The position numbers and the translations under genes are program-made. From IMG/VR virus record IMGVR_UViG_2698536574_000031: a stretch of 38,122 nucleotides of DNA; one strand, 5' to 3'. Shown here piece after piece: positions 1 through 28,803 of the stretch. Each line of letters begins with the position of its first letter. Position 1 is the stretch's first letter. The stretch is from a virus. Its lineage: Duplodnaviria; Heunggongvirae; Uroviricota; Caudoviricetes. Under the pieces are notes generated by a model. That model was not told the DNA's origin. It was given only the letters and a program-made list of their open reading frames with translations, and ran no database searches.

Positions 1-1053
1 TTAAACTTCGTTTAACGCTTCCTGTATTCTTCGACCAATCCATTTCATGACCGGTACAGGCATTGAATTTCCAATGGCCTTATAACGATGAGCTGGAGAT
101 GAATTTTTCCATGGAATATCTGTATATCCATCGGGAAAACCTTGTAGCCTCTCGCATTCGGTTGGCGTCAACCTACGAACCCTTGAATATGGTGCTCTTT
201 CAACTATGAGCCCACCAGACATAGTCATGTCCTGGTTAGTTGTTCCGTTATAGCCAGCTATTACTGTGCCTGTTCGTTTTGGCAATGCTTCAAGGCAATA
301 TCGGTGCAATTTTCCTTCAATGCCTTGATCAAGAAGGGATTCGGATTTTTTCTTCTTTCCATAATAGTTTTTATCGCCCTGCGACACAGGCGGGAACTCA
401 AATAATACCTTTCCGGGATCGAGCCTTTTTCCAGCACTTGCCACAACAAACACTCTTCTGCGAGCCTGGGCGACTCCGAAATATTGGGCATCAAGTACTC
501 GCCAGGCGACGATACGCGATGGTCCAGACACAACACCAGCGTTTGCCCATCTTTTCCTTGCTGGCTGTAATGCGCAACCTGCTCCGGCCAGCGCACCAAG
601 AAAATGACCGAATGCATTGTCATGGCTACTTAAAACTCCTGTGACGTTTTCCCATACGATTATTGAGGGGGATTTATTGAGCGATGCCCGAACGGTATCT
701 ATCTGATTCGCCAGTTCAACAAAAGACAGTGTTAACTGCCCCCGTGGATCTGAAAGGCCTTTTCGTTTGCCTGACATACTGAATGCCTGACACGGAGTTC
801 CACCTACAAGAATATCTGGTGCTTCAATAAGCCCATCCCTGATACGAGGCGCAAGCAAAGCCATATCACCAAGATTTGGTATATGGGGCCAGCGATATGA
901 AAGAAGTGTTGACGGGAAGTCCTCTATTTCACTGAACCATCTGGCTTTCCAGCCAAGATTGCTCCAGGCTACTGTCGCAGCTTCAATACCACTGCATACT
1001 GAACCATAGGTTAGTGACTTATCAGACTGAAAGTAATGTTTCTTGTTCCCCAC
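1..1053 (-). CDS. DNA (cytosine-5)-methyltransferase, Dcm-like; complete, GTG start lying inside the 3' end of the upstream com-like ORF
   Basis: Translation carries C5-MTase motifs in canonical order: SVCSGIEA (motif I), GGTPCQAFSMSG (motif IV, PCQ), ENV (motif VI), QARRRVFVV (motif VIII), AIGNSMPVPV (motif X). Stop codon is at window positions 1..3. Confidence 0.85.
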   Translation of the reverse strand: MGNKKHYFQSDKSLTYGSVCSGIEAATVAWSNLGWKARWFSEIEDFPSTLLSYRWPHIPNLGDMALLAPRIRDGLIEAPDILVGGTPCQAFSMSGKRKGLSDPRGQLTLSFVELANQIDTVRASLNKSPSIIVWENVTGVLSSHDNAFGHFLGALAGAGCALQPARKRWANAGVVSGPSRIVAWRVLDAQYFGVAQARRRVFVVASAGKRLDPGKVLFEFPPVSQGDKNYYGKKKKSESLLDQGIEGKLHRYCLEALPKRTGTVIAGYNGTTNQDMTMSGGLIVERAPYSRVRRLTPTECERLQGFPDGYTDIPWKNSSPAHRYKAIGNSMPVPVMKWIGRRIQEALNEV

Positions 1054-1207
1054 GGCAGGATTTCCTTGTGTATGTGGGGTGCTCTGTGGCGCTCTGAGAT
1101 GTGATTTGATTGAGGGTTTTACAGCGCGGACATTTTACTTCCAGATAACTGAAACTGGCCCGTGCCAGTAGCTTATTGCAGTGTCGGCACCGTATGTTTC
1201 GATACAT
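1022..1207 (-). CDS. com: Com-like zinc-finger protein (putative translational activator of the downstream methyltransferase)
   Basis: 61-aa product MYRNIRCRHCNKLLARASFSYLEVKCPRCKTLNQ... has the CxxC...CPRC arrangement and size of phage Mu Com. Start taken at the internal ATG (1205..1207) preceded by GGAGG; ORF track extends to 1252. Its 3' end overlaps the MTase start by about 10 codons. Confidence 0.6.
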   Translation of the reverse strand: MYRNIRCRHCNKLLARASFSYLEVKCPRCKTLNQITSQSATEHPTYTRKSCRGEQETLLSV

Positions 1208-1407
1208 GGCCGCATAACCTCCTGCTTTGTTGTTGATGCCTTTCTCATGCAATCGATCGACAAAAACGATCGATTCGATTTGTTTAATTGATACAACAAA
1301 TAGATTTAAAAGTCATCAACAATGATTCAGGACGGTGATTATTTACTTAAAGAAAACGAAGAGTTAGGTGGTGAAAACGATCATAAAATGATCATTTTAT
1401 TGACTTT

Positions 1408-1578
1408 TTATCCAGTGAATCTTGGGGTACACAGGATCTGCATCGCTATCCACATTGCAGTGGTGAAGTTTCGATCCTGTAATGTATTTTCATCAAGTCC
1501 TGAACGTAGCGCATTGATAATTTCTGCGCTTAATATTTCCAGACCTTTGGTATCGGGCTGTTTTTTGTTCTTGTCCAT
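1408..1578 (-). CDS. small hypothetical protein (56 aa, below ORF-track cutoff)
   Basis: Hand-translated: MDKNKKQPDTKGLEILSAEIINALRSGLDENTLQDRNFTTAMWIAMQILCTPRFTG*. ATG preceded by GAGGAAATAATC; sits just downstream of a hairpin terminator. Confidence 0.3.
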   Translation of the reverse strand: MDKNKKQPDTKGLEILSAEIINALRSGLDENTLQDRNFTTAMWIAMQILCTPRFTG

Positions 1579-1611
1579 GATTATTTCCTCTGACTGGTAT
1601 ATACATCGCCC

Positions 1612-1646
1612 ATGAAAATCAAACCGACAGGAGAAGCTGTCGGTTT
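1612..1646 (-). terminator. rho-independent terminator-like hairpin after ORF 1653..1898
   Basis: 10-bp perfect stem AAACCGACAG / CTGTCGGTTT (1621..1646) with 6-nt loop, followed on the minus strand by GATTTTCAT. Confidence 0.45.
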
Positions 1647-1652
1647 GTATTG

Positions 1653-1898
1653 TTACATCATGGCACTGTCAGTTCCGGGCTGAACCGGCTCTGGTTGCTC
1701 TACTGGTTGAGGCTCATTTTCCGTGCTGTTTTCAGCCGGAGAACGACCAACCATTCGGGCCAGCACTTCATCAACATATGCGTCGATTTGTGCCTCAAAA
1801 TCCTTGCGAACCTGCGCCTTCAGCACGCGGTTCACTTCTTCAGAATAAAGTGCCTGTTTGACAAGCTCTTCAGTAACCGTGCCTTTAATCTCTGGCAT
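1653..1898 (-). CDS. hypothetical protein (81 aa, charged/helical)
   Basis: ORF with strong RBS (AAAGGAGAATATT before ATG); the antisense + ORF 1650..2027 has a TTG start, no RBS and a low-complexity product. Confidence 0.5.
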   Translation of the reverse strand: MPEIKGTVTEELVKQALYSEEVNRVLKAQVRKDFEAQIDAYVDEVLARMVGRSPAENSTENEPQPVEQPEPVQPGTDSAMM

Positions 1899-1933
1899 GA
1901 ATATTCTCCTTTTGCAGGTATATTGCCCCGTTA

Positions 1934-2116
1934 TCAGAGCGGGGTCGGGTCGTTTGGGGATGACGGTGCCTGTGCTGTTTTACTGAGTTTTTCAGCTGCC
2001 GCATCATCAATTTTACGGCGAATATAATTTCTGATGACCTTATAACCGCCGCTCACCAGATATAACGCACTGACCACAGCGCAGAAATAAAGCAGCATTG
2101 TATGAACGAATGTCAT
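1934..2116 (-). CDS. small membrane protein (60 aa, one N-terminal TM helix)
   Basis: Hydrophobic N-terminus MLLYFCAVVSALYLVSGG followed by a basic stretch; RBS-like AAAGGTAAGG upstream. Confidence 0.4.
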   Translation of the reverse strand: MTFVHTMLLYFCAVVSALYLVSGGYKVIRNYIRRKIDDAAAEKLSKTAQAPSSPNDPTPL

Positions 2117-2228
2117 ATAACCTTACCTTTGATATTGACTACATAATTCGTTATCGGGTAAAAACATCGAAGCGACTGATAACCACTCCTTCGGGAGTAT
2201 TTTTATTTTCCTTTATGGGTTAGGTAGC

Positions 2229-2264
2229 TCCCGCCAGCCATATCATGACCGGCGGGATTTTTTT
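2229..2264 (+). terminator. hairpin plus T7 tract oriented for the + strand, abutting the esterase stop codon
   Basis: Stem TCCCGCC / GGCGGGA with 15-nt loop followed by TTTTTTT on the + strand; an A-tract precedes it on the minus strand, so it may work bidirectionally. Confidence 0.35.
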
Positions 2265-4302
2265 ATTCTGTTACCGCTTTTTTCACTTCCACCACAATGC
2301 TGTCAATCAGCACCGGGTAAGTTGCATTTTTGGTGATATCCGTTACGCGGAGTTTGTCCACCGGGAAAGTTCCTACTGGTGACTGCGTCAGGGTAAACGC
2401 GGCACCATCCTGACCATCAATAACCGGAATAACCTGAAGGCTGTTATTTCCTGCAAAACGGAAGGCCAGCGTATGCCATTCATTATCAAATGCACCAAAG
2501 GTTCCCAGTTTCTGGTTATTTGTTGCCACTTTTGCATTGTGGTACATCACATTCAGGTCTTTTGCGTCTGTCTGGATGTAGAACGATGCCAGCAGATTAT
2601 TCCCTGCATCCCCTGTCAGGGTGACACCCTGCGGCAGAGAGGAAACCGGCCAGTAAAGCGCCATGACATACTGGTTTGCCACCAGGTCGCCAGGTACTTT
2701 AAAACGACAACTGATTAAACCACCATTTTTCAGCAGTTCAGCACCAGTACCGGCATCATGATCCAGATACCAGGATGATTTACCTGTTTCCTTGGTCAGT
2801 TTCATTGCCTTACCACCTGTGCCTCCTGCATCACTGATAATTTCAGCTTTACCGCCAGCCGGCTCCCAGCCCTGGGCTTTCAGATTTCCTTCTGACTCAC
2901 TGACACGGTAAGACAGCAGTGTTGTGGTTACTGCTTCAGTTTCTGAAGGTGATGGCACTGGTGCTTCAGTTTCAGAAGATGGAACATCGGCTTTTACTGT
3001 GGTTCGCCCTGCATGAGTCAGAACAGCCGTGGCCAGACGGTCAGAAATAATACCCCGGCGCGCCCAGGCACTGAAATGGCTGGCCCGGTCCGCAGATGTC
3101 CAGGTAGCGGCACTGTTACGCCACGTTGAGCCGTAATAACCAATGGATTCAATATCCGGGTCTTCTGCCGGATTGTTGGTGGGTACATTCACGCCATTTT
3201 CATCTGTCATTAATGGAACGAAATGAATGTTTTTATCTGTTTTGTTTTTGTAGCCGCCATAGATTGCCTGGTATGCTGGTTCATTTTTCTGTTTCCAGAA
3301 ATACGTGGTATCGCCACAAATCCACGGAACGCCAGCAGCACTGCCACCGGTACACTGTTCCGCCTGTTCAGCCAGGTCTGCGCGGAATTTTTCCACCATC
3401 GCCAGAAACAGCGCAGAATGCTCCGTCGGCTTCGCATCAATATCAAACTCGCCCTGCATCCACACCACAGCAAGCAGGCGGTTTTTCGGGTTCTTCGCCA
3501 GTGCCGCTTTTGTCCGGCTGATTAAGTCCTTATACAGCGGCTTATCCACACCCCAGCGGGCTGAGTCCTCTGAAGCACCCGTGCTGTCACTGTACGTGCC
3601 GTCAGCACCCACCGTGAATGCAGAACCACCACGGCAGCAGGGAACCAGCAGAATCCCCGCATCTGCCGGAATAAACGGCAGCAGTTTTTTGGCAATGTGA
3701 AGCCCCTGACCCACGGTGCCATATTGCCCTTTAGCCACATCCGCTTTCGGGTGATTTTTTCCACTCATATCCTGCACATCATGCAGACAGTGGTCGGCCA
3801 GAATGATGTCGTTATACTGACAGGCTTTACCTCCCGGCGTGACTGTACTGCGACGGGCTAACTGCATAATACGCGGTTCGGGGCGGTCATATGTCTCCGG
3901 CAGTGGCAGACCTTCACCGTAAGCCATACCGTTTGACTGACCAGCAAGAACCACCACGTAATACCAGGAAGGGGAGCCGGAAGCAGTTTCATTTCCTGAC
4001 GGACGGGTATGTGTTTCAGCATTATCCCAGTCTGACGGTTCAGCAGTACCGGCAACATCAGCACTTAACGGAATGACCGCACCAATACCCGCTCCGGTAA
4101 TTTCCACACTCGGATCACCGGATACTGGCCTTACCCACAGGCAATCCCGGGTATTAAAACTGATGAGACAGTCAGCAAATGTCATTCCTCCTTTTGTTTC
4201 GGCCGGAGGAAAGGGAGCCTCAAGAAATGCCGCTGTACCACCGGAAACTTTAACAGTAAAGTTTCCGGGCATTGATGATAGTTGAACCCATTTGGACGTC
4301 AT
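2263..4302 (-). CDS. SGNH-hydrolase esterase, sialate O-acetylesterase (NanS/SASA)-like, with N-terminal extension and C-terminal lectin-like domain (679 aa)
   Basis: VVLAGQSNGMAYGEG matches the GQSN block of SASA/DUF303 carbohydrate esterases; about 100-aa N-terminal region and about 200-aa C-terminal Gly/Thr-rich beta-type region; co-directional with the late genes. Confidence 0.65.
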   Translation of the reverse strand: MTSKWVQLSSMPGNFTVKVSGGTAAFLEAPFPPAETKGGMTFADCLISFNTRDCLWVRPVSGDPSVEITGAGIGAVIPLSADVAGTAEPSDWDNAETHTRPSGNETASGSPSWYYVVVLAGQSNGMAYGEGLPLPETYDRPEPRIMQLARRSTVTPGGKACQYNDIILADHCLHDVQDMSGKNHPKADVAKGQYGTVGQGLHIAKKLLPFIPADAGILLVPCCRGGSAFTVGADGTYSDSTGASEDSARWGVDKPLYKDLISRTKAALAKNPKNRLLAVVWMQGEFDIDAKPTEHSALFLAMVEKFRADLAEQAEQCTGGSAAGVPWICGDTTYFWKQKNEPAYQAIYGGYKNKTDKNIHFVPLMTDENGVNVPTNNPAEDPDIESIGYYGSTWRNSAATWTSADRASHFSAWARRGIISDRLATAVLTHAGRTTVKADVPSSETEAPVPSPSETEAVTTTLLSYRVSESEGNLKAQGWEPAGGKAEIISDAGGTGGKAMKLTKETGKSSWYLDHDAGTGAELLKNGGLISCRFKVPGDLVANQYVMALYWPVSSLPQGVTLTGDAGNNLLASFYIQTDAKDLNVMYHNAKVATNNQKLGTFGAFDNEWHTLAFRFAGNNSLQVIPVIDGQDGAAFTLTQSPVGTFPVDKLRVTDITKNATYPVLIDSIVVEVKKAVTE

Positions 4303-4401
4303 AATAATCAGCCTGTTCCTGAATAAACTGAATTATCATATCCACAGACCGATAAACGCCATTTTGCGTTAATTCAGTAAAGGCCCAACAAAGAGAGCGT
4401 C

Positions 4402-4962
4402 TTATTTTTCCGAAACGCTCGCAGGATAATAACGATAAAGGGTTGAAAGACCGATATCAAAAATAAGTGCCACCTGTCTTCGACTGACACCCCCGGCCAG
4501 TAAACGCCCGACCTGCTCGTATTGTTCCTGCGTGAGACGGCGGGGTCTGCCGCCGGTTCGTCCCCTTTCACGGGCAGCTGCAAGACCAGCCCGTGTCCGT
4601 TCGACAATTAATTCACGCTCCATTTCTGCCAGCGCACCCATTATGTGAAAAAAGAAGCGCCCCATGGGGGTTGACGTATCAATGTTGTCAGTAAGACTAC
4701 GAAAATTTATCCCCTGTTGCTGTAATTCATCTGTCAGCGCAACAAGGTGGCGCATACTGCGCCCCAGCCTGTCCAGTTTCCAGACCATCAGCGTGTCACC
4801 GGGTTTTAGTTTCTTCAGTGCCCGCTTCAGTCCCGGCCGCTGTGTCGTTTTACCACTCATTTTGTCTTCAAAAATCTGCTCACATCCTGCACATTCCAGC
4901 GCATTTCTTTGTAAACCGGTGTTCTGGTCATTTGTTGATACGCGTATATAGCCAATCAGCAT
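4402..4962 (-). CDS. gin: Gin/Hin/Cin/Pin-family serine DNA invertase
   Basis: MLIGYIRVSTNDQNTGLQ... has the catalytic Ser at position 9-10 and a C-terminal HTH (GLSTLYRY), 186 aa; lies immediately outside a gix-like site. Confidence 0.9.
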   Translation of the reverse strand: MLIGYIRVSTNDQNTGLQRNALECAGCEQIFEDKMSGKTTQRPGLKRALKKLKPGDTLMVWKLDRLGRSMRHLVALTDELQQQGINFRSLTDNIDTSTPMGRFFFHIMGALAEMERELIVERTRAGLAAARERGRTGGRPRRLTQEQYEQVGRLLAGGVSRRQVALIFDIGLSTLYRYYPASVSEK

Positions 4963-5016
4963 GTATTTACCTTCCTTAAAAAGAGGTGGAAAAGCCTTTT
5001 AAAGCAGATATACGGC

Positions 5017-5042
5017 ATCCCTGAAACCTCGGTTTACGGGAT
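5017..5042. repeat. gix-like 26-bp invertase crossover site (gin-proximal)
   Basis: ATCCCTGAAACC TC GGTTTACGGGAT; its reverse complement shares a 17-bp core TCCCGTAAACCGAGGTT and central GA dinucleotide with the site at 6443..6468. Confidence 0.7.
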
Positions 5043-5396
5043 ACGGTAAACAGGGCCGCGAATGCCCTGCCATCAAACGGTACTGCTGTTGCAGCAAGCA
5101 GGCTGGCAAATGCCCGCAGAATCAATGGTGTCGCCTTTGACGGCACGCAGGATATAGACATTACGTCAGGAATGCCGGAATCAACGGCCAATCAGCGTTA
5201 TGTTACAGGGGTAAGACTGGGAGCGCAGGCATTAAGCGGCGGACTGGAATATAATTACTCCCTGTCATCAGGAAATGTGATTACCGGTTTTAAGACTGAC
5301 GGAGACTGGGAAATGCGTGGTGGTGATGACCGTGTTTATTACAGACAGATACAATATTGTATTAATGGGCATTGGGTATCCGCTGCAAGTATTTAA
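5025..5396 (+). CDS. alternative tail-fibre C-terminal cassette (S'v-like; no own start, would fuse to the constant S N-terminus after inversion)
   Basis: Open frame from the gix site: NLGLRDTVNRAANALPSNGTAVAASRLANARRINGVAFDGTQDIDITSGMPESTANQRYVTGVRLGAQ...YYRQIQYCINGHWVSAASI, homologous to the C-terminal 126 aa of the expressed fibre. Confidence 0.6.
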   Translation, partial: NLGLRDTVNRAANALPSNGTAVAASRLANARRINGVAFDGTQDIDITSGMPESTANQRYVTGVRLGAQALSGGLEYNYSLSSGNVITGFKTDGDWEMRGGDDRVYYRQIQYCINGHWVSAASI

Positions 5397-6456
5397 TTAA
5401 CGGGGGCATAGCACACAGCAGCCAGCATCTGAAATATGCGTTATTTCAGACAAGCATTGCCTGTATATGGCGATAGTATTATTCCTGTTTTTATCATTGA
5501 TTTACATGGTGATGTTTATGCAACTGATTAATGTCAAACGATATTACCCGAAAGACAAACCCTATGGTGAGGATGTTCAGTATTTCCAGAGTGAGGACGG
5601 AAGGGATTTTTATGAATCTATCCCGCTTTTTACAAAGAAATACAAACTCTGTATTTCGCCTGTAACGGGTATTATCTGCTCTGTTGCTGAAGATGTCTCT
5701 GCTTTATATCCGGCAGGTTTTACTGTTGTTGAAGTGGACGAACTGCCGGAAGGTGTGAATATTGACGGTAACTGGCAGTTTTCTGATGGCCTGATATCAA
5801 AGGTGCCGGTAAACTGGAAGACGGTTGCTGAAAAGCGTCGCTCATCGCTGCTCCAGGAAGCCAACGAAACCGTGGATGACTGGAAAACAGAATTAAAACT
5901 GGACATGATTAGCGATGAAAATAAATTACAGCTGACGCGCTGGATGGCGTATATCCGACAGCTTAAAGAAATGCACTTTAATGATATTGCCAGTGAGGGG
6001 CATTACCAGGCGATTCCCTGGCCGGAAAAACCGGAATAATTCAGAGGGTGCATTCAGCACCCTTTTCTGTGGTTTACACTGAACTTACCGTTCTCCAGGC
6101 ATTATTAATATAAATCTGAACCGGGCGATAATAGACCCCACCGATATTGTCCGCAGACCGGGAGCCGGTTTCCTGCACGTTAATACCGGAAAGCATACAA
6201 CCGGAAGGTGCGCTGTAATTCCATGACATTTCATTGCCTCCGGGTGAATGATAGCTCTGTGCTCCAAGCTGAACATTCTGTACATACCGGCCATCTGCGG
6301 TTGACTGCGTCATTCCTGACGTGATGTTGATATCCAGCGTTCCGTCAAAAGGAACACCATTAATATTTCTTGGGGTGGCGAGTCTGTTTGCTGCCACGGC
6401 GGTTCCAGCCGATGGCAGGGCATCAGCAGCCTTATTTACCGTTTCCCGTAAACCGA
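5029..6456. other. Gin-invertible tail-fibre segment (G-segment analogue, about 1.43 kb)
   Basis: Bounded by the two inverted gix-like sites; carries two opposed tail-fibre C-terminal cassettes and one tail-fibre assembly gene; the crossover dinucleotide lies in the same codon phase (CTC, Leu) in both cassettes. Confidence 0.65.
5467..6039 (+). CDS. tail-fibre assembly chaperone (Tfa/U-like)
   Basis: 190-aa ORF inside the invertible segment, downstream of and co-directional with the silent cassette; C-terminus ...QAIPWPEKPE is typical of Tfa proteins. True start uncertain (ATGs at 5467, 5506, 5512, 5518; none with a clear SD). Confidence 0.6.
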   Translation: MAIVLFLFLSLIYMVMFMQLINVKRYYPKDKPYGEDVQYFQSEDGRDFYESIPLFTKKYKLCISPVTGIICSVAEDVSALYPAGFTVVEVDELPEGVNIDGNWQFSDGLISKVPVNWKTVAEKRRSSLLQEANETVDDWKTELKLDMISDENKLQLTRWMAYIRQLKEMHFNDIASEGHYQAIPWPEKPE

Positions 6457-6985
6457 GGTTATCGATAAAGGTTCCTTTGTCCTGGATATCCGCGCCATTC
6501 TGGTCCCTGCGCAGGTAACGGTTATCACCTTCGCTCCTGCTGTAAACATCCAGATTATTACGGGCGGTTTCCGCATTCTCCAGGTCGGCAAGGTTCTGAT
6601 CCTTCGCCAGGGCATTAACGTCAGCGGGACCAAGACTGTTTTTTGTGGCAAGCGTCCCCAGACCAAGATAACCACGGGCCAGACGCTGGGCTTCCGCACC
6701 GGCATCAGCAATTTCTTTCAGGTTGTTTTTCCGGGAAAAGGCATTCGCAGCGATAATGGCTTTAATGGACAGCGTAAGCTGGTTTAACTGCGCCTTATCC
6801 GGCTGAATACTGGCTTCAGCCAGAATATTCAGCAGTTCGGCCTGGAGAATATTCAGCCAGTCCTGACCAATCCAGCTGATACCTTTTTGTCCGTCACCTT
6901 CGGTAAACCAGGTGGTGGTATTACTCTGCGCCGGAGCCAGTTCAGGCATATTCGCCACGCCGGAATTATTATCAACATGGAACAT
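6074..6985 (-). CDS. tail fibre protein S (constant N-terminal part plus currently expressed variable C-terminal cassette)
   Basis: Start MFHVDNNSG... at an ATG overlapping the upstream stop (TAATG) with AGGAG upstream; the gix-like site lies at codon 177. Confidence 0.8.
   Translation of the reverse strand: MFHVDNNSGVANMPELAPAQSNTTTWFTEGDGQKGISWIGQDWLNILQAELLNILAEASIQPDKAQLNQLTLSIKAIIAANAFSRKNNLKEIADAGAEAQRLARGYLGLGTLATKNSLGPADVNALAKDQNLADLENAETARNNLDVYSRSEGDNRYLRRDQNGADIQDKGTFIDNLGLRETVNKAADALPSAGTAVAANRLATPRNINGVPFDGTLDINITSGMTQSTADGRYVQNVQLGAQSYHSPGGNEMSWNYSAPSGCMLSGINVQETGSRSADNIGGVYYRPVQIYINNAWRTVSSV
6443..6468. repeat. gix-like 26-bp invertase crossover site (inside the tail-fibre gene)
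   Basis: TTCCCGTAAACC GA GGTTATCGATAA, inverted relative to 5017..5042 and close to the Mu gix / Salmonella hix type. Confidence 0.7.
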
Positions 6986-7545
6986 TAAATATTCTCCTCT
7001 TTGTGACTGTTTGCATACACGTAAATAAACGTCTGCCATGCAGGCTTATAACGGTTCAGAATACATTCCAGCGCACCACCCTCATAAATACGCAGCGGGG
7101 TGAGAATATCATCCAGCACATTCATATTCCGGTAGCCGGTTTCACTGTTTATCGTGACAATACTGACCCACTGTGAATCCGGTGATGGCTGAATATCTAT
7201 TTCATAACCAAACTCTGCCGCAAACCGGATATAAAATTCACGGTTAAGAGAGGGTTTCATCCGGTATTTATTCCCTGCATAACGCTGACGTTCCTGAATG
7301 GTTGCGCCGGTCATATCACATTCCGGTAACCCCAGATAACGCTCCCAGTCTTCCAGCAGCAGACGGGATGAATCAGGAAAACGTTCTGCCAGCATCTGGT
7401 TACCGGTCCAGGAAACACGCTCCGTGGAATGACTGAGGCCCAGGCACAAAGCCGCAAGAACGGATGACGGCCGCTTATCCCATGCCAGCCCGTCAGGCAG
7501 CAACTGCAACAGGGCGCGCTGATGCGGGGTCAGGGTTACAGCCAT
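6985..7545 (-). CDS. tail/baseplate protein (Mu gp48/R-like)
   Basis: 186 aa; position and size match Mu R; translationally coupled to S. Confidence 0.55.
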   Translation of the reverse strand: MAVTLTPHQRALLQLLPDGLAWDKRPSSVLAALCLGLSHSTERVSWTGNQMLAERFPDSSRLLLEDWERYLGLPECDMTGATIQERQRYAGNKYRMKPSLNREFYIRFAAEFGYEIDIQPSPDSQWVSIVTINSETGYRNMNVLDDILTPLRIYEGGALECILNRYKPAWQTFIYVYANSHKEENI

Positions 7546-18331: not shown

Positions 18332-19279
18332 TTACAGATAATCCGCGACAACCAGCTCCAGCTTGCCCTTCATCTCGTTAGAGACGGTTGCGTTTCCGTC
18401 TGCGAACAGTTCACGCTCCAGCAGCTGCACCGCCTGTTTTTCCAGCGAGGTGGGGACAACAATATGGGTGGGTTTGATGCCGAGTTTGCGGCCACCGTCA
18501 GCGGTAAATTCGCGCATGGCTGACCAGCCGTGCCACAGTGCATCCAGCGTCAGCGGTGACTGCATCATGTAGGCCATCTGCCAGAAGCCGTAGCCCACAT
18601 TGCGACGGGCGGAAGCACCGAACACAAATTCGTTATCGGTGAATGCGCGACCTTCATCGACTTTGGTCTGGGCAACCAGTTCAGCCTTACGGCGATCCTG
18701 ATAAATCAGCGGTTTGATTGCGCGTGAACAGTCGAGCAGATACCAGGCAGGACCGCTGTAATCCGCCTGTGCACCGACAGAGCCGGTTTTTGCCACAAAC
18801 ATATTGCTGACCATCTGCGCATCCCCGGAGCCATCCACTTTGGGGTAAACCGGATGTTCGGTATCAAAGAAGTTCTGACCGTCATAGCAGGCCGCACTGA
18901 TCCCGTCACGCAGGGCAGCAAAGACCAGCTCATCCGGTTGTACCGCCGCAGCGCGCCCCATCTCCTGGAACAACGGGGAATAAATACCGAGGTTGTCGTC
19001 TTCGAAGTCATCGCGGCTAATGGCGACAGTGCCTTCAAAAGTTTTGTTCACGATGGCATAGCCATAGGCTTTCATCTTCTCGATGACGCGGGAGCCGATC
19101 CACTCACGGAACTGCGGGAACTGCCCCAGCCAGCCGTAGGTGTTGGATTTCGATGTGGAGGGCACGGTCATCGCAATTTTTTTGTACTGCGACGGGGCCA
19201 TGGACATCCCGGCCTGAAAATCAGAACGGTAGCCCGTCATCAGGGCGGTGATCATCGCCGGTGTAATCGGGGTAGGCAT
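18332..19279 (-). CDS. major capsid protein (Mu T-like)
   Basis: 315 aa immediately after the protease/scaffold gene. Confidence 0.8.
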   Translation of the reverse strand: MPTPITPAMITALMTGYRSDFQAGMSMAPSQYKKIAMTVPSTSKSNTYGWLGQFPQFREWIGSRVIEKMKAYGYAIVNKTFEGTVAISRDDFEDDNLGIYSPLFQEMGRAAAVQPDELVFAALRDGISAACYDGQNFFDTEHPVYPKVDGSGDAQMVSNMFVAKTGSVGAQADYSGPAWYLLDCSRAIKPLIYQDRRKAELVAQTKVDEGRAFTDNEFVFGASARRNVGYGFWQMAYMMQSPLTLDALWHGWSAMREFTADGGRKLGIKPTHIVVPTSLEKQAVQLLERELFADGNATVSNEMKGKLELVVADYL

Positions 19280-20403: not shown

Positions 20404-20579
20404 TCCGGCAGCATAGGCCGGGAATTTTCAGGGCGGGTTTTGCGGGATTTCAGGAAGTGCTTTCAGGGGAAAAATACAAAGGCGCTTCACGCAGATTTTA
20501 AAGCCCGTTAAATTCAGGTTAGAAAATCACGACACGCGCCTGAAGGGGGTAAGGTAATGCATTTGCATACCTTAAACAA
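20404..20579 (-). promoter_or_regulatory. 176-bp intergenic region upstream of the protease/scaffold gene; candidate activator-dependent late promoter
   Basis: Three direct TTTCAGG repeats (20426, 20448, 20461), a near-palindrome ATGCATTTGCAT and a CCCCC run; in Mu the I gene has its own C-dependent promoter. Confidence 0.3.
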
Positions 20580-27512: not shown

Positions 27513-27843
27513 TCGTGGCCGCCTCACTGATTTGTGAAATGAGTTGCAGGGTGTGCTGCTGATTTGCCAGCACCTGACGCGCCTCATCCCGCTCACGCAC
27601 AAGCACCTGATTATTGTCTTCAAGGCGCTGCGTCTTCTGGTGCATTCCCCATATAGCGGCAACCAGTACAGCGATAATCCCCAGCGCCGCCATGCACGCC
27701 CCGGCAATCAGGGCCGGTAAGGCATTATTCACCGCAGCCACAGGACACCCCGTAACAGCAGTACCGCACACAGCAGCGCTATCATGAGCGGTCGCCAGAA
27801 GCGGTTCAGACTTTCGGCAAGTCGTAGCGACATAACCATTCAT
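27343..27843 (-). CDS. i-spanin (inner-membrane, Rz-like)
   Basis: N-terminal TM ALPALIAGACMAALGIIAVLVAAIW followed by a coiled-coil periplasmic region; overlaps the o-spanin frame. Confidence 0.5.
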   Translation of the reverse strand: MNGYVATTCRKSEPLLATAHDSAAVCGTAVTGCPVAAVNNALPALIAGACMAALGIIAVLVAAIWGMHQKTQRLEDNNQVLVRERDEARQVLANQQHTLQLISQISEAATNEKQQNIQHSEGQQSVVRRSLAAVPAASAPVPDDVADRVRRAVCEIRACEAGADPR

Positions 27844-28306
27844 CCGCCGAACGGCGGGCCTCAAGGCCGGGGAGTTTCACCCCCTTTGAATAAATCCAGC
27901 GGATATACTGCTTACAGGACGCGGGCATCTGTCCGGCATTAATAAGGCGCAGAAGCGTGGAGTTGCGGAAGTTCGTTTCACCGGCCCAGAAGATCCACGA
28001 AGCCAGCGCCACCGTCTGACCACGGGTAAGCGGCACCTGAACACGCCGATCAATGGCCGCAAAGGCCCATTTCATGTCCTTTTCCAGTAGTTCCAGGCAT
28101 TCTTCATCCGTCAGGGTCATACCCGGTTTCACATCCGGGCCGGTATGGCCGTAACAGATGGTGGGTGTACCGGTGGGATCGATATACGTGGAGTTTTCTT
28201 TCCCTTCCCAGTAACCGGTGTAATGCGTGGCAATCGTGAACGTCCCGGCACCGGCCAGAACAAGGGCAATCAGCTTTTTACGCAGTGGTGCGGGGAGTTT
28301 TGGCAT
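27806..28306 (-). CDS. SAR endolysin (T4-lysozyme-like)
   Basis: N-terminal weakly hydrophobic Gly/Ala-rich signal-anchor KLIALVLAGAGTFTIA, then catalytic-region blocks EGKEN...TICYGHTG...FRNSTLLRLIN...RRSADEWLC. Confidence 0.8.
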   Translation of the reverse strand: MPKLPAPLRKKLIALVLAGAGTFTIATHYTGYWEGKENSTYIDPTGTPTICYGHTGPDVKPGMTLTDEECLELLEKDMKWAFAAIDRRVQVPLTRGQTVALASWIFWAGETNFRNSTLLRLINAGQMPASCKQYIRWIYSKGVKLPGLEARRSADEWLCRYDLPKV

Positions 28307-28377
28307 TGTTACGCTGTCTCATGATGTTCTCTGAGTCAGCGTAACGGTGAAGGAAAGGCGGCAGGCTTTGCGGAATA

Positions 28378-28803
28378 TCAGAAAAGTGGCGGTTGCGTTC
28401 TTGCCAGATGCAGACGGCGCTGTTCGCGTATGACGGTATAAATCTGGGTTTCTGACATCCGGTAATGGCGGCGAAGGGATTCAATTTTCTCGCCCCGGTC
28501 CCAGCGCGAAAATATCTCATTGTTTCGCAGCTCGGCAAAGAGAGATTCCCCGACAGGCAGGTAATAACCCCGTCCGCCCATATAGGCTGCCTGAGCCGCA
28601 GCCACCTTGCGTGCCAGTTTACCGGCCAGTACCGGCTCAATCCCCTGACGCTGAAGTTCTGCGCCGGTGACTTCAACCAGTTCTGACAGGGTCCGCGGCC
28701 AGTTCTTTTTGAGAACATCATCAGGGATGTCATCAAGGCGGTCGATAAGGGCGTGCAGTTGCTCACTGTCACCACCAAACATGCTCATCTGAGTTTCTGC
28801 CAT
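28378..28803 (-). CDS. Mor/C-family transcriptional activator (single copy; sits at the C position before lys)
   Basis: 141 aa; C-terminal HTH ...LRRHYRMSETQIYTVIREQRR and central YYLPVG block; preceded by a terminator. Confidence 0.7.
   Translation of the reverse strand: MAETQMSMFGGDSEQLHALIDRLDDIPDDVLKKNWPRTLSELVEVTGAELQRQGIEPVLAGKLARKVAAAQAAYMGGRGYYLPVGESLFAELRNNEIFSRWDRGEKIESLRRHYRMSETQIYTVIREQRRLHLARTQPPLF

Follow-up and report, generated by a model that had tools for sequence, protein, structure and literature searches.

A NanS-p-type esterase gene with a distinct N-terminal domain in a Mu-like prophage

Well-described phage sialate O-acetylesterases are the NanS-p proteins of lambdoid and Shiga toxin (Stx) phages, represented by L0105/z1466 of 933W, by vb_24B_21 (gp84) of phi24B and by the crystallised C-terminal domain 6YP6. 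All tested NanS-p alleles of EDL933 and O104:H4 C227-11 phi-cu are active Neu5,9Ac2 esterases, which also de-O-acetylate mucin glycans (PMC8065619). The lambdoid nanS-p genes are expressed late, in a Q-dependent manner, and are induced together with stx (PMC8065619, PMC10462455); NanS-p has also been described in non-Stx prophages (PMC10462455). The genomes of Escherichia coli strains that make Shiga toxin (STEC) already carry several nanS-p copies. The chromosomal, single-domain E. coli NanS (YjhS; PDB 3PT5, chain of 337 residues) belongs to the host nan regulon. It acts through a Ser-His dyad without a catalytic Asp, and its Gln18 contributes to the oxyanion hole (PMC9063846). Here we describe a 679-residue member of this group, encoded on the minus strand at 2263..4302 of the viral record IMGVR_UViG_2698536574_000031, whose 38,122 nucleotides we call the window. 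NanS-p as such is already known, whereas the different N-terminal domain of this protein is new. In the literature searched, to which the primary NanS/NanS-p papers did not belong, no paper naming both 'NanS-p' and 'Mu-like' was found, and none describing an alternative N-terminal domain.

The carrier is apparently a complete Mu-like prophage, judging from its gene content: the window encodes MuA, MuB, GemA, a Mor/C-family activator, the Mu portal protein, F, protease I, gpT (18332-19279; 4e-119) and the sheath protein, in addition to gin and com. The catalytic and DUF6645 domains of the 679-aa protein and of lambdoid NanS-p are alike, with the GQSN and RASH motifs and four aromatic residues conserved; both types reside on STEC prophages, and late expression is probable in both. 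The lambdoid carriers differ from the transposable Mu-like myovirus studied here, and their genes lie after stx and before the holin gene, whereas the 679-aa gene is found outside such a late region, after gin and the tail fibres. Likewise, Q antitermination from pR' in the lambdoid phages contrasts with a box for a presumed C-type activator in the window.

Identity and active site of the esterase

The open reading frame (ORF) is exactly as described in an initial annotation of the window, which regarded the product as an SGNH/NanS-like esterase. It is intact, starts with ATG and ends with a stop codon at 2263-2265. We consider Met1 the true start because an AGG lies 9 nt 5' of its ATG and because residues 1-10 are kept in the alignment of diverged relatives; Met11 has no Shine-Dalgarno sequence. 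The 669-aa forms found in databases (e.g. P0006, with the same N-terminus) arise from a 10-residue indel in the second linker and not from an alternative start codon. By sequence, the gene is intact and belongs to the NanS/NanS-p lineage of enzymes. Its parts are the following:

2263..4302, minus strand: nanS-p-like gene (Pfam SASA and DUF6645; phrog_143, E = 0; matches to PDB 3PT5 and 6YP6)
4063..4302, minus strand: N-terminal domain, aa 1-80, predicted all-beta and cupin-like, not DUF1737
3967..4062, minus strand: linker 1, aa 81-112, predicted disorder (predicted local distance difference test score, pLDDT, <50 at aa 80-105) and recombination breakpoint zone
3007..3966, minus strand: predicted SGNH type II (SASA) catalytic domain, aa 113-432 (3PT5 match; GQSN at 121-124, RASH at 406-409)
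2929..3006, minus strand: linker 2, aa 433-458, rich in P/S/T/E, with a 10-aa indel polymorphism in the alignment
2266..2928, minus strand: C-terminal lectin-like jelly-roll domain, aa 459-679 (DUF6645; 6YP6 and Pfam matches)

The esterase assignment was upheld by the profile search that the initial annotation had proposed: Pfam SASA (PF03629) matches aa 116-312 at 45.1 bits (cut-off 24.8), and aa 105-428 match the E. coli NanS/YjhS structure 3PT5 with an E-value of 1.2e-117 (phmmer). The GQSN block quoted there, VVLAGQSNGMAYGEG, corresponds to residues 117-131. Ser123 (nt 3934-3936) and His409 (nt 3076-3078) align with Ser19 and His301 of NanS, with an alignment offset of 11 residues, and both are invariant in the 11 aligned homologues; Gln122, also conserved, aligns with NanS Gln18, so that the dyad and the oxyanion Gln are common to the phage and the host enzyme. 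In the proposed mechanism, Ser123 would attack the acetyl ester and His409 would act as the base. A Ser-His-Asp triad, chosen earlier as the yardstick for the fold, is not the appropriate one here, since enzymes of the NanS type use a Ser-His dyad (PMC9063846); its absence would not speak against the NanS assignment. We infer the SGNH type II fold of aa 113-432 from the close 3PT5 match. The full-length AlphaFold2 model, built from an alignment of 11 sequences, had a mean pLDDT of only 57.8 and its N-terminus was misaligned with DUF1737, and we base no conclusion on it.

The C-terminal domain had previously been left unassigned, with a search against lectin profiles suggested. Residues 459-674 match the crystallised NanS-p C-terminal domain 6YP6 with an E-value of 2.9e-112, and Pfam DUF6645 is found at aa 524-642 (4e-70), which confirms the lectin-like assignment. 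Y545, Y550, Y575 and F646 align with Y510, Y515, Y540 and F611 of P0101, a phage NanS-p of 645 aa, and the residues with the latter numbers in vb_24B_21 were proposed as carbohydrate-binding aromatics (PMC10462455). The protein thus has the central SASA domain and the lectin-like C-terminal domain with a conserved aromatic site that are typical of NanS-p. E. coli NanS, by comparison, has neither the N-terminal beta domain nor the linkers nor the lectin-like domain. The indel in linker 2, ETEAPVPSPS, separates 679-aa from 669-aa alleles, and SETE flanks it on both sides.

Both domains are under purifying selection, with dN/dS ratios of 0.10-0.17 for the SASA domain and 0.10-0.25 across the SASA and C-terminal domains. 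Outside the N-terminus, lambdoid NanS-p share 74-80% identity with the protein, over 83-90% of its length. Based on this relationship we consider it fairly probable that the product is an active sialate 9-O-acetylesterase of the NanS-p type.

The substrate suggested by these matches bears on a different view of the enzyme, namely that it helps adsorption by de-O-acetylating a polymer of the bacterial surface, such as the O-antigen or K1 polysialic acid, and thereby gives the phage access to its receptor. SGNH tailspike esterases are known to open receptor access in this way, the gene adjoins the invertible tail-fibre region, and aa 210-311 match weakly (E 5e-5) a PHROG family named 'tail protein' (phrog_25867). 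The idea has also been raised for NanS-p (PMC8065619). However, the very close match of the catalytic domain to 3PT5 (E 1e-117) and its 74-80% identity to NanS-p reported to act on sialic acids and mucin glycans (PMC8065619) weigh against it, and the same enzyme body occurs in phages with quite different tails and receptors. Moreover, the N-terminal domain was not detected elsewhere in the window or in phage Mu, and no trimeric architecture of the tailspike type was evident in domain scans or models. We therefore regard a role in adsorption as improbable.

The N-terminal domain and exchange of the enzyme body

All lambdoid relatives carry an N-terminal DUF1737, an alpha helix with three strands. 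In the 679-aa protein, DUF1737 (PF08410) gave no match at E<=1 with the whole protein or at E<=10 with aa 1-96; its N-terminus is instead an 80-aa domain predicted to be all-beta and cupin-like. The N-terminal 100 residues had been listed as unassigned; they contain a separate conserved beta domain that is the distinctive part of the protein. As judged from the alignments, this previously undescribed domain replaces the DUF1737 of lambdoid NanS-p. An AlphaFold2 model of the N-terminus alone had a mean pLDDT of 72.8 and showed six beta strands; block means were 76-90 within aa 1-70 but 57 at aa 71-80. Fold searches with the domain returned only generic small cupin/jelly-roll barrels and uncharacterised phage proteins of 85-100 aa; no known decoration protein was among the matches. 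The sole profile match was a weak one (E 0.0047) to phrog_4772, a family of small phage proteins of unknown function with a profile of 79 positions. The relatives match it better (E 7e-6 for the Salmonella form and 1.8e-4 for that of locus L044), and nearly the whole profile is covered by them and by the 679-aa protein alike.

NanS-type esterases were the only proteins in which the domain was found. Among 5.8 billion proteins, a word-indexed search returned nothing but fragments of the same esterases, and phmmer, run exhaustively on 1.84 billion representatives, yielded five matches, all of them to esterase N-termini or to a low-complexity repeat protein. Of 50,697 phage records searched with tblastn, only two were hit, both Stx-phage records with an inserted Mu-like phage, and a scan of the GTDB species representatives detected no copy. 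All loci with a readable context are Mu-like prophages, and at the loci inspected the gene lies directly 3' of a tail-fibre assembly gene or of gin. Four lineages can be distinguished: E. coli clade A, to which the window belongs, E. coli/Shigella clade B (about 60% identical), a Salmonella lineage (29%) and L044 (37%), where the identities refer to the N-terminal domain and the overall range between lineages is 27-60%. Between clades A and B the proportion of nonsynonymous differences (pN) is 0.24 against a saturated synonymous value (pS) of 0.78, indicating that the N-terminal domain is a selected protein domain.

Of 5,426 complete E. coli genomes, 205 contain the clade A N-terminal domain together with its junction to gin; most of these are from bovine and human STEC. 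Near-identical copies in complete E. coli genomes bear the NCBI name 'DUF6645 domain-containing protein'. Since this N-terminus has no DUF1737, assays that target the junction of DUF1737 and SASA (for primers see PMC10462455) would be expected to overlook the variant and thus to underestimate nanS-p copy numbers and expression. The related Sakai prophage Sp18 is predicted to be intact and is spontaneously inducible, with its DNA packaged, but is not inducible by mitomycin (PMC2669165). Phages of the Sp18 type differ in this from those that carry the Stx-phage copies, and their esterase should therefore be released under other conditions.

DNA similarity to about 300 lambdoid/Stx phage records is confined to window positions 2274-3968, that is aa ~112-676, and starts at 3954-3968. 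This enzyme body would be the same as that of lambdoid/Stx-phage NanS-p and exchanged by recombination, the first 80 residues being specific to the Mu lineage. At L016, L017 and L019, the N-terminal domain is 98-99% identical to that of the window, the SASA domain 67-69% and the C-terminal domain 39-47%, and DUF826, encoded further 3', is again 98-99% identical. Read from the alignment, this pattern shows that a double crossover has replaced the enzyme body, and one of the breakpoints lies in linker 1; the source of the foreign body of L016 was not found among the phage records. P0068, in which DUF1737 precedes a Mu-type body, was rejected as a clean reciprocal swap of domains, since its contig, L048 of a draft genome, has a lambdoid/Mu-like junction 607 bp from the contig end. 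Positions 1-2600 of L048 comprise about 850 nt of lambdoid sequence (DUF1737 and the region downstream of stx), followed by a Mu-type esterase body, DUF1378, DUF826, com and mom. The junction could be a genuine recombinant between prophages or an assembly chimera formed at the repeated gene.

Two further N-termini were seen among relatives. The esterase of L047 has a third type, similar to phrog_895 (a profile of 70 positions; E 6e-10), and that of L046 has almost no N-terminal domain, only a leader of about 45 aa. Both genes (L047:6714-9074 and L046:8956-11073) encode NanS-like esterases of the Salmonella type, lie after tail-fibre genes and have a C-terminal extension of about 100 aa beyond DUF6645.

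The initial annotation had offered two functions, foraging on mucin sugars by the lysogen and a virion-associated enzyme, and both have been discussed for NanS-p (PMC8065619) and raised in a preprint on phi24B (bioRxiv 10.64898/2026.04.10.717836). According to the latter, NanS-p (gp84) is found in phi24B virions, where DUF1737 forms a hexamer in the centres of the capsid hexons and the body is later cleaved off; DUF1737 occurs mostly in single-domain proteins. By analogy, the N-terminal domain may be a particle anchor of the Mu type, binding capsid or tail as a counterpart of DUF1737 and displaying the enzyme body, which is perhaps cleaved off later. Such an enzyme would serve the phage, by mucus adherence or passage, and not the lysogen alone. 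We give this proposal substantial weight, although somewhat less than even. It is compatible with release of the enzyme at lysis, discussed below, and adds a role for the N-terminal domain.

Several observations besides the phi24B virion protein favour such a tether. A small, non-homologous domain followed by a disordered linker stands at the same position as DUF1737, and occurs on NanS-type esterases only, in four lineages whose readable contexts are all Mu-like prophages. In L016, L017 and L019 it stays 98-99% identical while the body falls to 67% (SASA) and 40% (C-terminal domain), and it is under purifying selection. The three N-termini (DUF1737, phrog_4772-like and phrog_895-like) are unrelated in sequence, the two PHROG profiles being short, and in every case the gene directly follows the tail-fibre module. 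Against this, the fold search matched no known decoration protein, only cupins of a generic kind, one relative (L046) has almost no N-terminal domain, and the phi24B result comes from an unreviewed preprint. In addition, the pairing of N-terminal domain and phage type may reflect the mechanics of recombination, and need not be functional, because only the homology-flanked region from SASA to DUF826 can be swapped.

Since unrelated phages keep the same enzyme body, each with its own N-terminal module, the enzyme seems to matter to the phage and not only to the diet of the lysogen. We tentatively suggest that NanS-type esterases are portable glycan-processing cargo, mounted on unrelated phage particles through interchangeable N-terminal anchors; each of the N-termini, of which there are at least three, may have arisen from a small, free-standing protein of the virion. 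Small N-terminal adaptors hold an enzyme or adhesin on the particle in virion-borne SGNH esterase tailspikes such as gp63.1 of phage G7C and in capsid decoration proteins such as T4 Hoc. The likeness is in concept only, as the fold search with the N-terminal domain revealed no sequence or specific fold relationship to such proteins. If mounting on the particle is correct, no transposable phage before this one would have been shown to carry an enzyme on its particle, and the N-terminal domain would represent a new family of particle-binding adaptors.

Candidate late promoter and release at lysis

The region 5' of the esterase gene contains a candidate promoter with counterparts elsewhere in the window:

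4335..4377, minus strand: candidate activator-dependent late promoter, consisting of CTGAATTAACGCAAAA, 21 nt and TATGAT, without a -35 hexamer, 33 nt 5' of the ATG
28338..28381, minus strand: comparator box at lys, CTGATATTCCGCAAAG, 22 nt and TACGCT
20410..20453, minus strand: comparator box at the head protease/scaffold gene I, CTGAAATCCCGCAAAA, 22 nt and TATGCT
28378..28803, minus strand: Mor/C-family activator (Pfam Mor 3e-32; 39% identity to Mu C and 27% to Mu Mor)
1620..1647, reported on both strands: GC-rich hairpin with an 11-bp stem from a scan for terminator-like structures, 6 nt after the DUF826 stop codon

The gene at 27806-28306 is taken to be the endolysin gene (lys) from its position just 3' of the C-like activator gene, as in Mu. 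A relaxed pattern, CGCAA[AG]-N20-23-TA[TC][GA][ACT]T, occurs exactly three times in the 38-kb window, each time on the coding strand and immediately 5' of a gene: lys, I and the esterase gene. The arrangement is conserved 5' of the clade B alleles (60%-diverged), and the 15-mer conserved between the clades differs by one mismatch from the spacer 5' of head gene I and by three from the spacer between the activator gene and lys. The box common to the upstream regions of lys and I suggests a late promoter of the C type for the esterase gene, and the activator encoded at 28378..28803 is presumed to regulate these boxes. A weaker copy of the box, CTGAAATAACGCATAT, is located at 5434-5449 on the minus strand, inside the invertible segment and between two plus-strand genes. 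The hairpin at 1620..1647 probably ends the transcript of the module. Another GC-rich hairpin, CCCGCCGG...CTGGCGGG at 2227-2262, directly follows the esterase stop codon; its T-run is on the plus strand only, and it therefore looks like a terminator of an antisense transcript and not of the esterase gene. An Rfam scan of window positions 1-6200 found nothing.

We infer the substrate, the timing of expression and the benefit of the esterase as follows. The module would be transcribed late from its own promoter, with a predicted start near 4328 and a transcript of roughly 2.7 kb, and with the box presumably bound by the C-like activator, and transcription would probably stop at the hairpin after DUF826. 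The enzyme should leave the cell only at lysis, because no signal peptide is seen in the protein (judged by eye). It would then strip O-acetyl groups from mucin sialic acids, which would become usable by sialidases and by surviving sister lysogens, while the C-terminal lectin-like jelly-roll domain would keep the enzyme on sialoglycans. On these grounds it is reasonably likely that the esterase is made late in lytic growth, is freed at lysis and de-O-acetylates mucin sialic acids to which its lectin-like domain directs it.

Several points weigh against this scheme. Shuffled sequences gave a mean of 0.43 matches to the promoter pattern and at least three matches in 4 of 300 shuffles, and the pattern was partly refined after its matches had been seen. 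At gene I the -10 element lies only 6 nt before the listed ATG; therefore, either I truly starts further 3' or this box does not act as a promoter. The Mu C-site at Pmom looks unlike the box, although this is expected of an activator that shares only 39% identity with Mu C. Transcripts may also read through into the gene from gin or the tail operon. Finally, release at lysis assigns no role to the conserved N-terminal domain.

The same signals were considered for the alternative that the gene is a lysogenic-conversion gene (moron), active while the prophage is quiescent, for instance because transcription from the gin promoter continues into it, and providing each lysogen with a steady supply of esterase. 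The gene has the orientation of gin, and lies 99 bp 3' of it, and the GC content of the region is lower than that of the structural genes (0.44-0.51 vs 0.55-0.59). Cargo slots beside tail-fibre genes often hold conversion genes. However, a cytoplasmic enzyme that has no visible signal peptide could not reach mucin from within an intact cell. A hairpin with a T-rich stretch straddles the gin stop codon, and no promoter of the sigma-70 type stands out: the scan was not enriched (3 found vs 5.5 expected) and revealed no good candidate in the 99-bp spacer between gin and the esterase gene. The upstream box is common to lytic genes, and the lambdoid homologues are late genes induced with stx (PMC8065619, PMC10462455). 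Constitutive supply from the prophage is thus unlikely.

The gin-com slot and neighbouring genes

On the coding strand, the tail-fibre gene with the invertible segment is followed by gin, the esterase gene, DUF1378, DUF826, com and a C5 DNA methyltransferase gene. The slot and its contents are as follows:

4402..4962, minus strand: DNA invertase of the gin type (serine; Pfam Resolvase 1e-51 and HTH_7), left boundary of the cargo slot
1934..2116, minus strand: DUF1378 small protein with one predicted transmembrane helix (Pfam 1e-38; phrog_494), second gene of the module
1653..1898, minus strand: DUF826 protein (Pfam 3e-15; phrog_311), third gene of the module
1022..1252, minus strand: com homologue (Pfam Zn_ribbon_Com 1e-12; PHROG annotation 'gpCom control of modification'), right boundary of the slot

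The matches for both flanks, with the Mu gene set, bear out the earlier placement of the esterase as cargo between gin and com of a Mu-like element. The host-range switch that had been noted beside it is also real: an assembly gene and alternative C-termini for the tail fibre lie between 179-nt inverted repeats (5025-5203 and 6282-6460). The order and orientation of gin, com and an overlapping DNA-modification gene are those of the right end of phage Mu. The distance from the gin stop to the com start is 94 bp in Mu and 3150 bp, with three extra genes, in the window.

The esterase, DUF1378 and DUF826 genes travel together as a module of about 3 kb, and DUF1378 is found 3' of the esterase gene in those related Mu-like loci that have a flank of sufficient length. 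In Stx2 phage 1717 (L006), a 53% tblastn match to DUF1378, annotated in the record only as a hypothetical protein, lies directly 3' of nanS-p, and in some Stx2a phages coding regions for DUF826 or DUF1378 were reported to separate nanS-p from S (PMC10462455). The trio is therefore used by both phage types. Together with the hairpin after DUF826 and the 94-bp spacer of Mu, this makes the module look like a self-contained insert.

In the clade B loci L024, L025, L029, L032, L035, L039 and L040 gin was not detected. In the four of them that were aligned (L024, L032, L039 and L040), only the 3' end of gin remains 5' of the esterase gene. The host-range switch is presumably fixed in these loci.

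The position of mom in Mu is occupied in the window (1-1053) by a gene for a 350-aa C5 cytosine DNA methyltransferase (PF00145, 2e-42), the start of which, like that of mom in Mu, overlaps com at its 3' end. In near-identical O157:H7 prophages a 245-aa protein is encoded behind com, and a gene of identical length in L048 gave a Pfam Mom match, which indicates that the modification gene at this place can be swapped. Clusters of GATC, TGATCATTTTATGATCG and CGATCGTTTTTGTCGATCGA, are located 5' of com (window 1253-1400), an arrangement that we take to resemble the Dam/OxyR-controlled mom promoter region of Mu. A plus-strand ORF of 97 aa at 1322-1615 has a match to phrog_26524 that covers no more than its first 41 positions; the annotations of relatives treat the ORF as a pseudogene with a frameshift, overlapping DUF826 and the hairpin, and it is probably a remnant.

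The invertible segment (5025-6460) is asymmetric. In the present orientation the tail-fibre gene at 6074-7039 is complete, but no assembly gene is co-oriented with it; the opposite strand holds the sole assembly gene (5467-6039), together with an alternative fibre C-terminus of 74 aa (5172-5396), and both would be expressed only after inversion.

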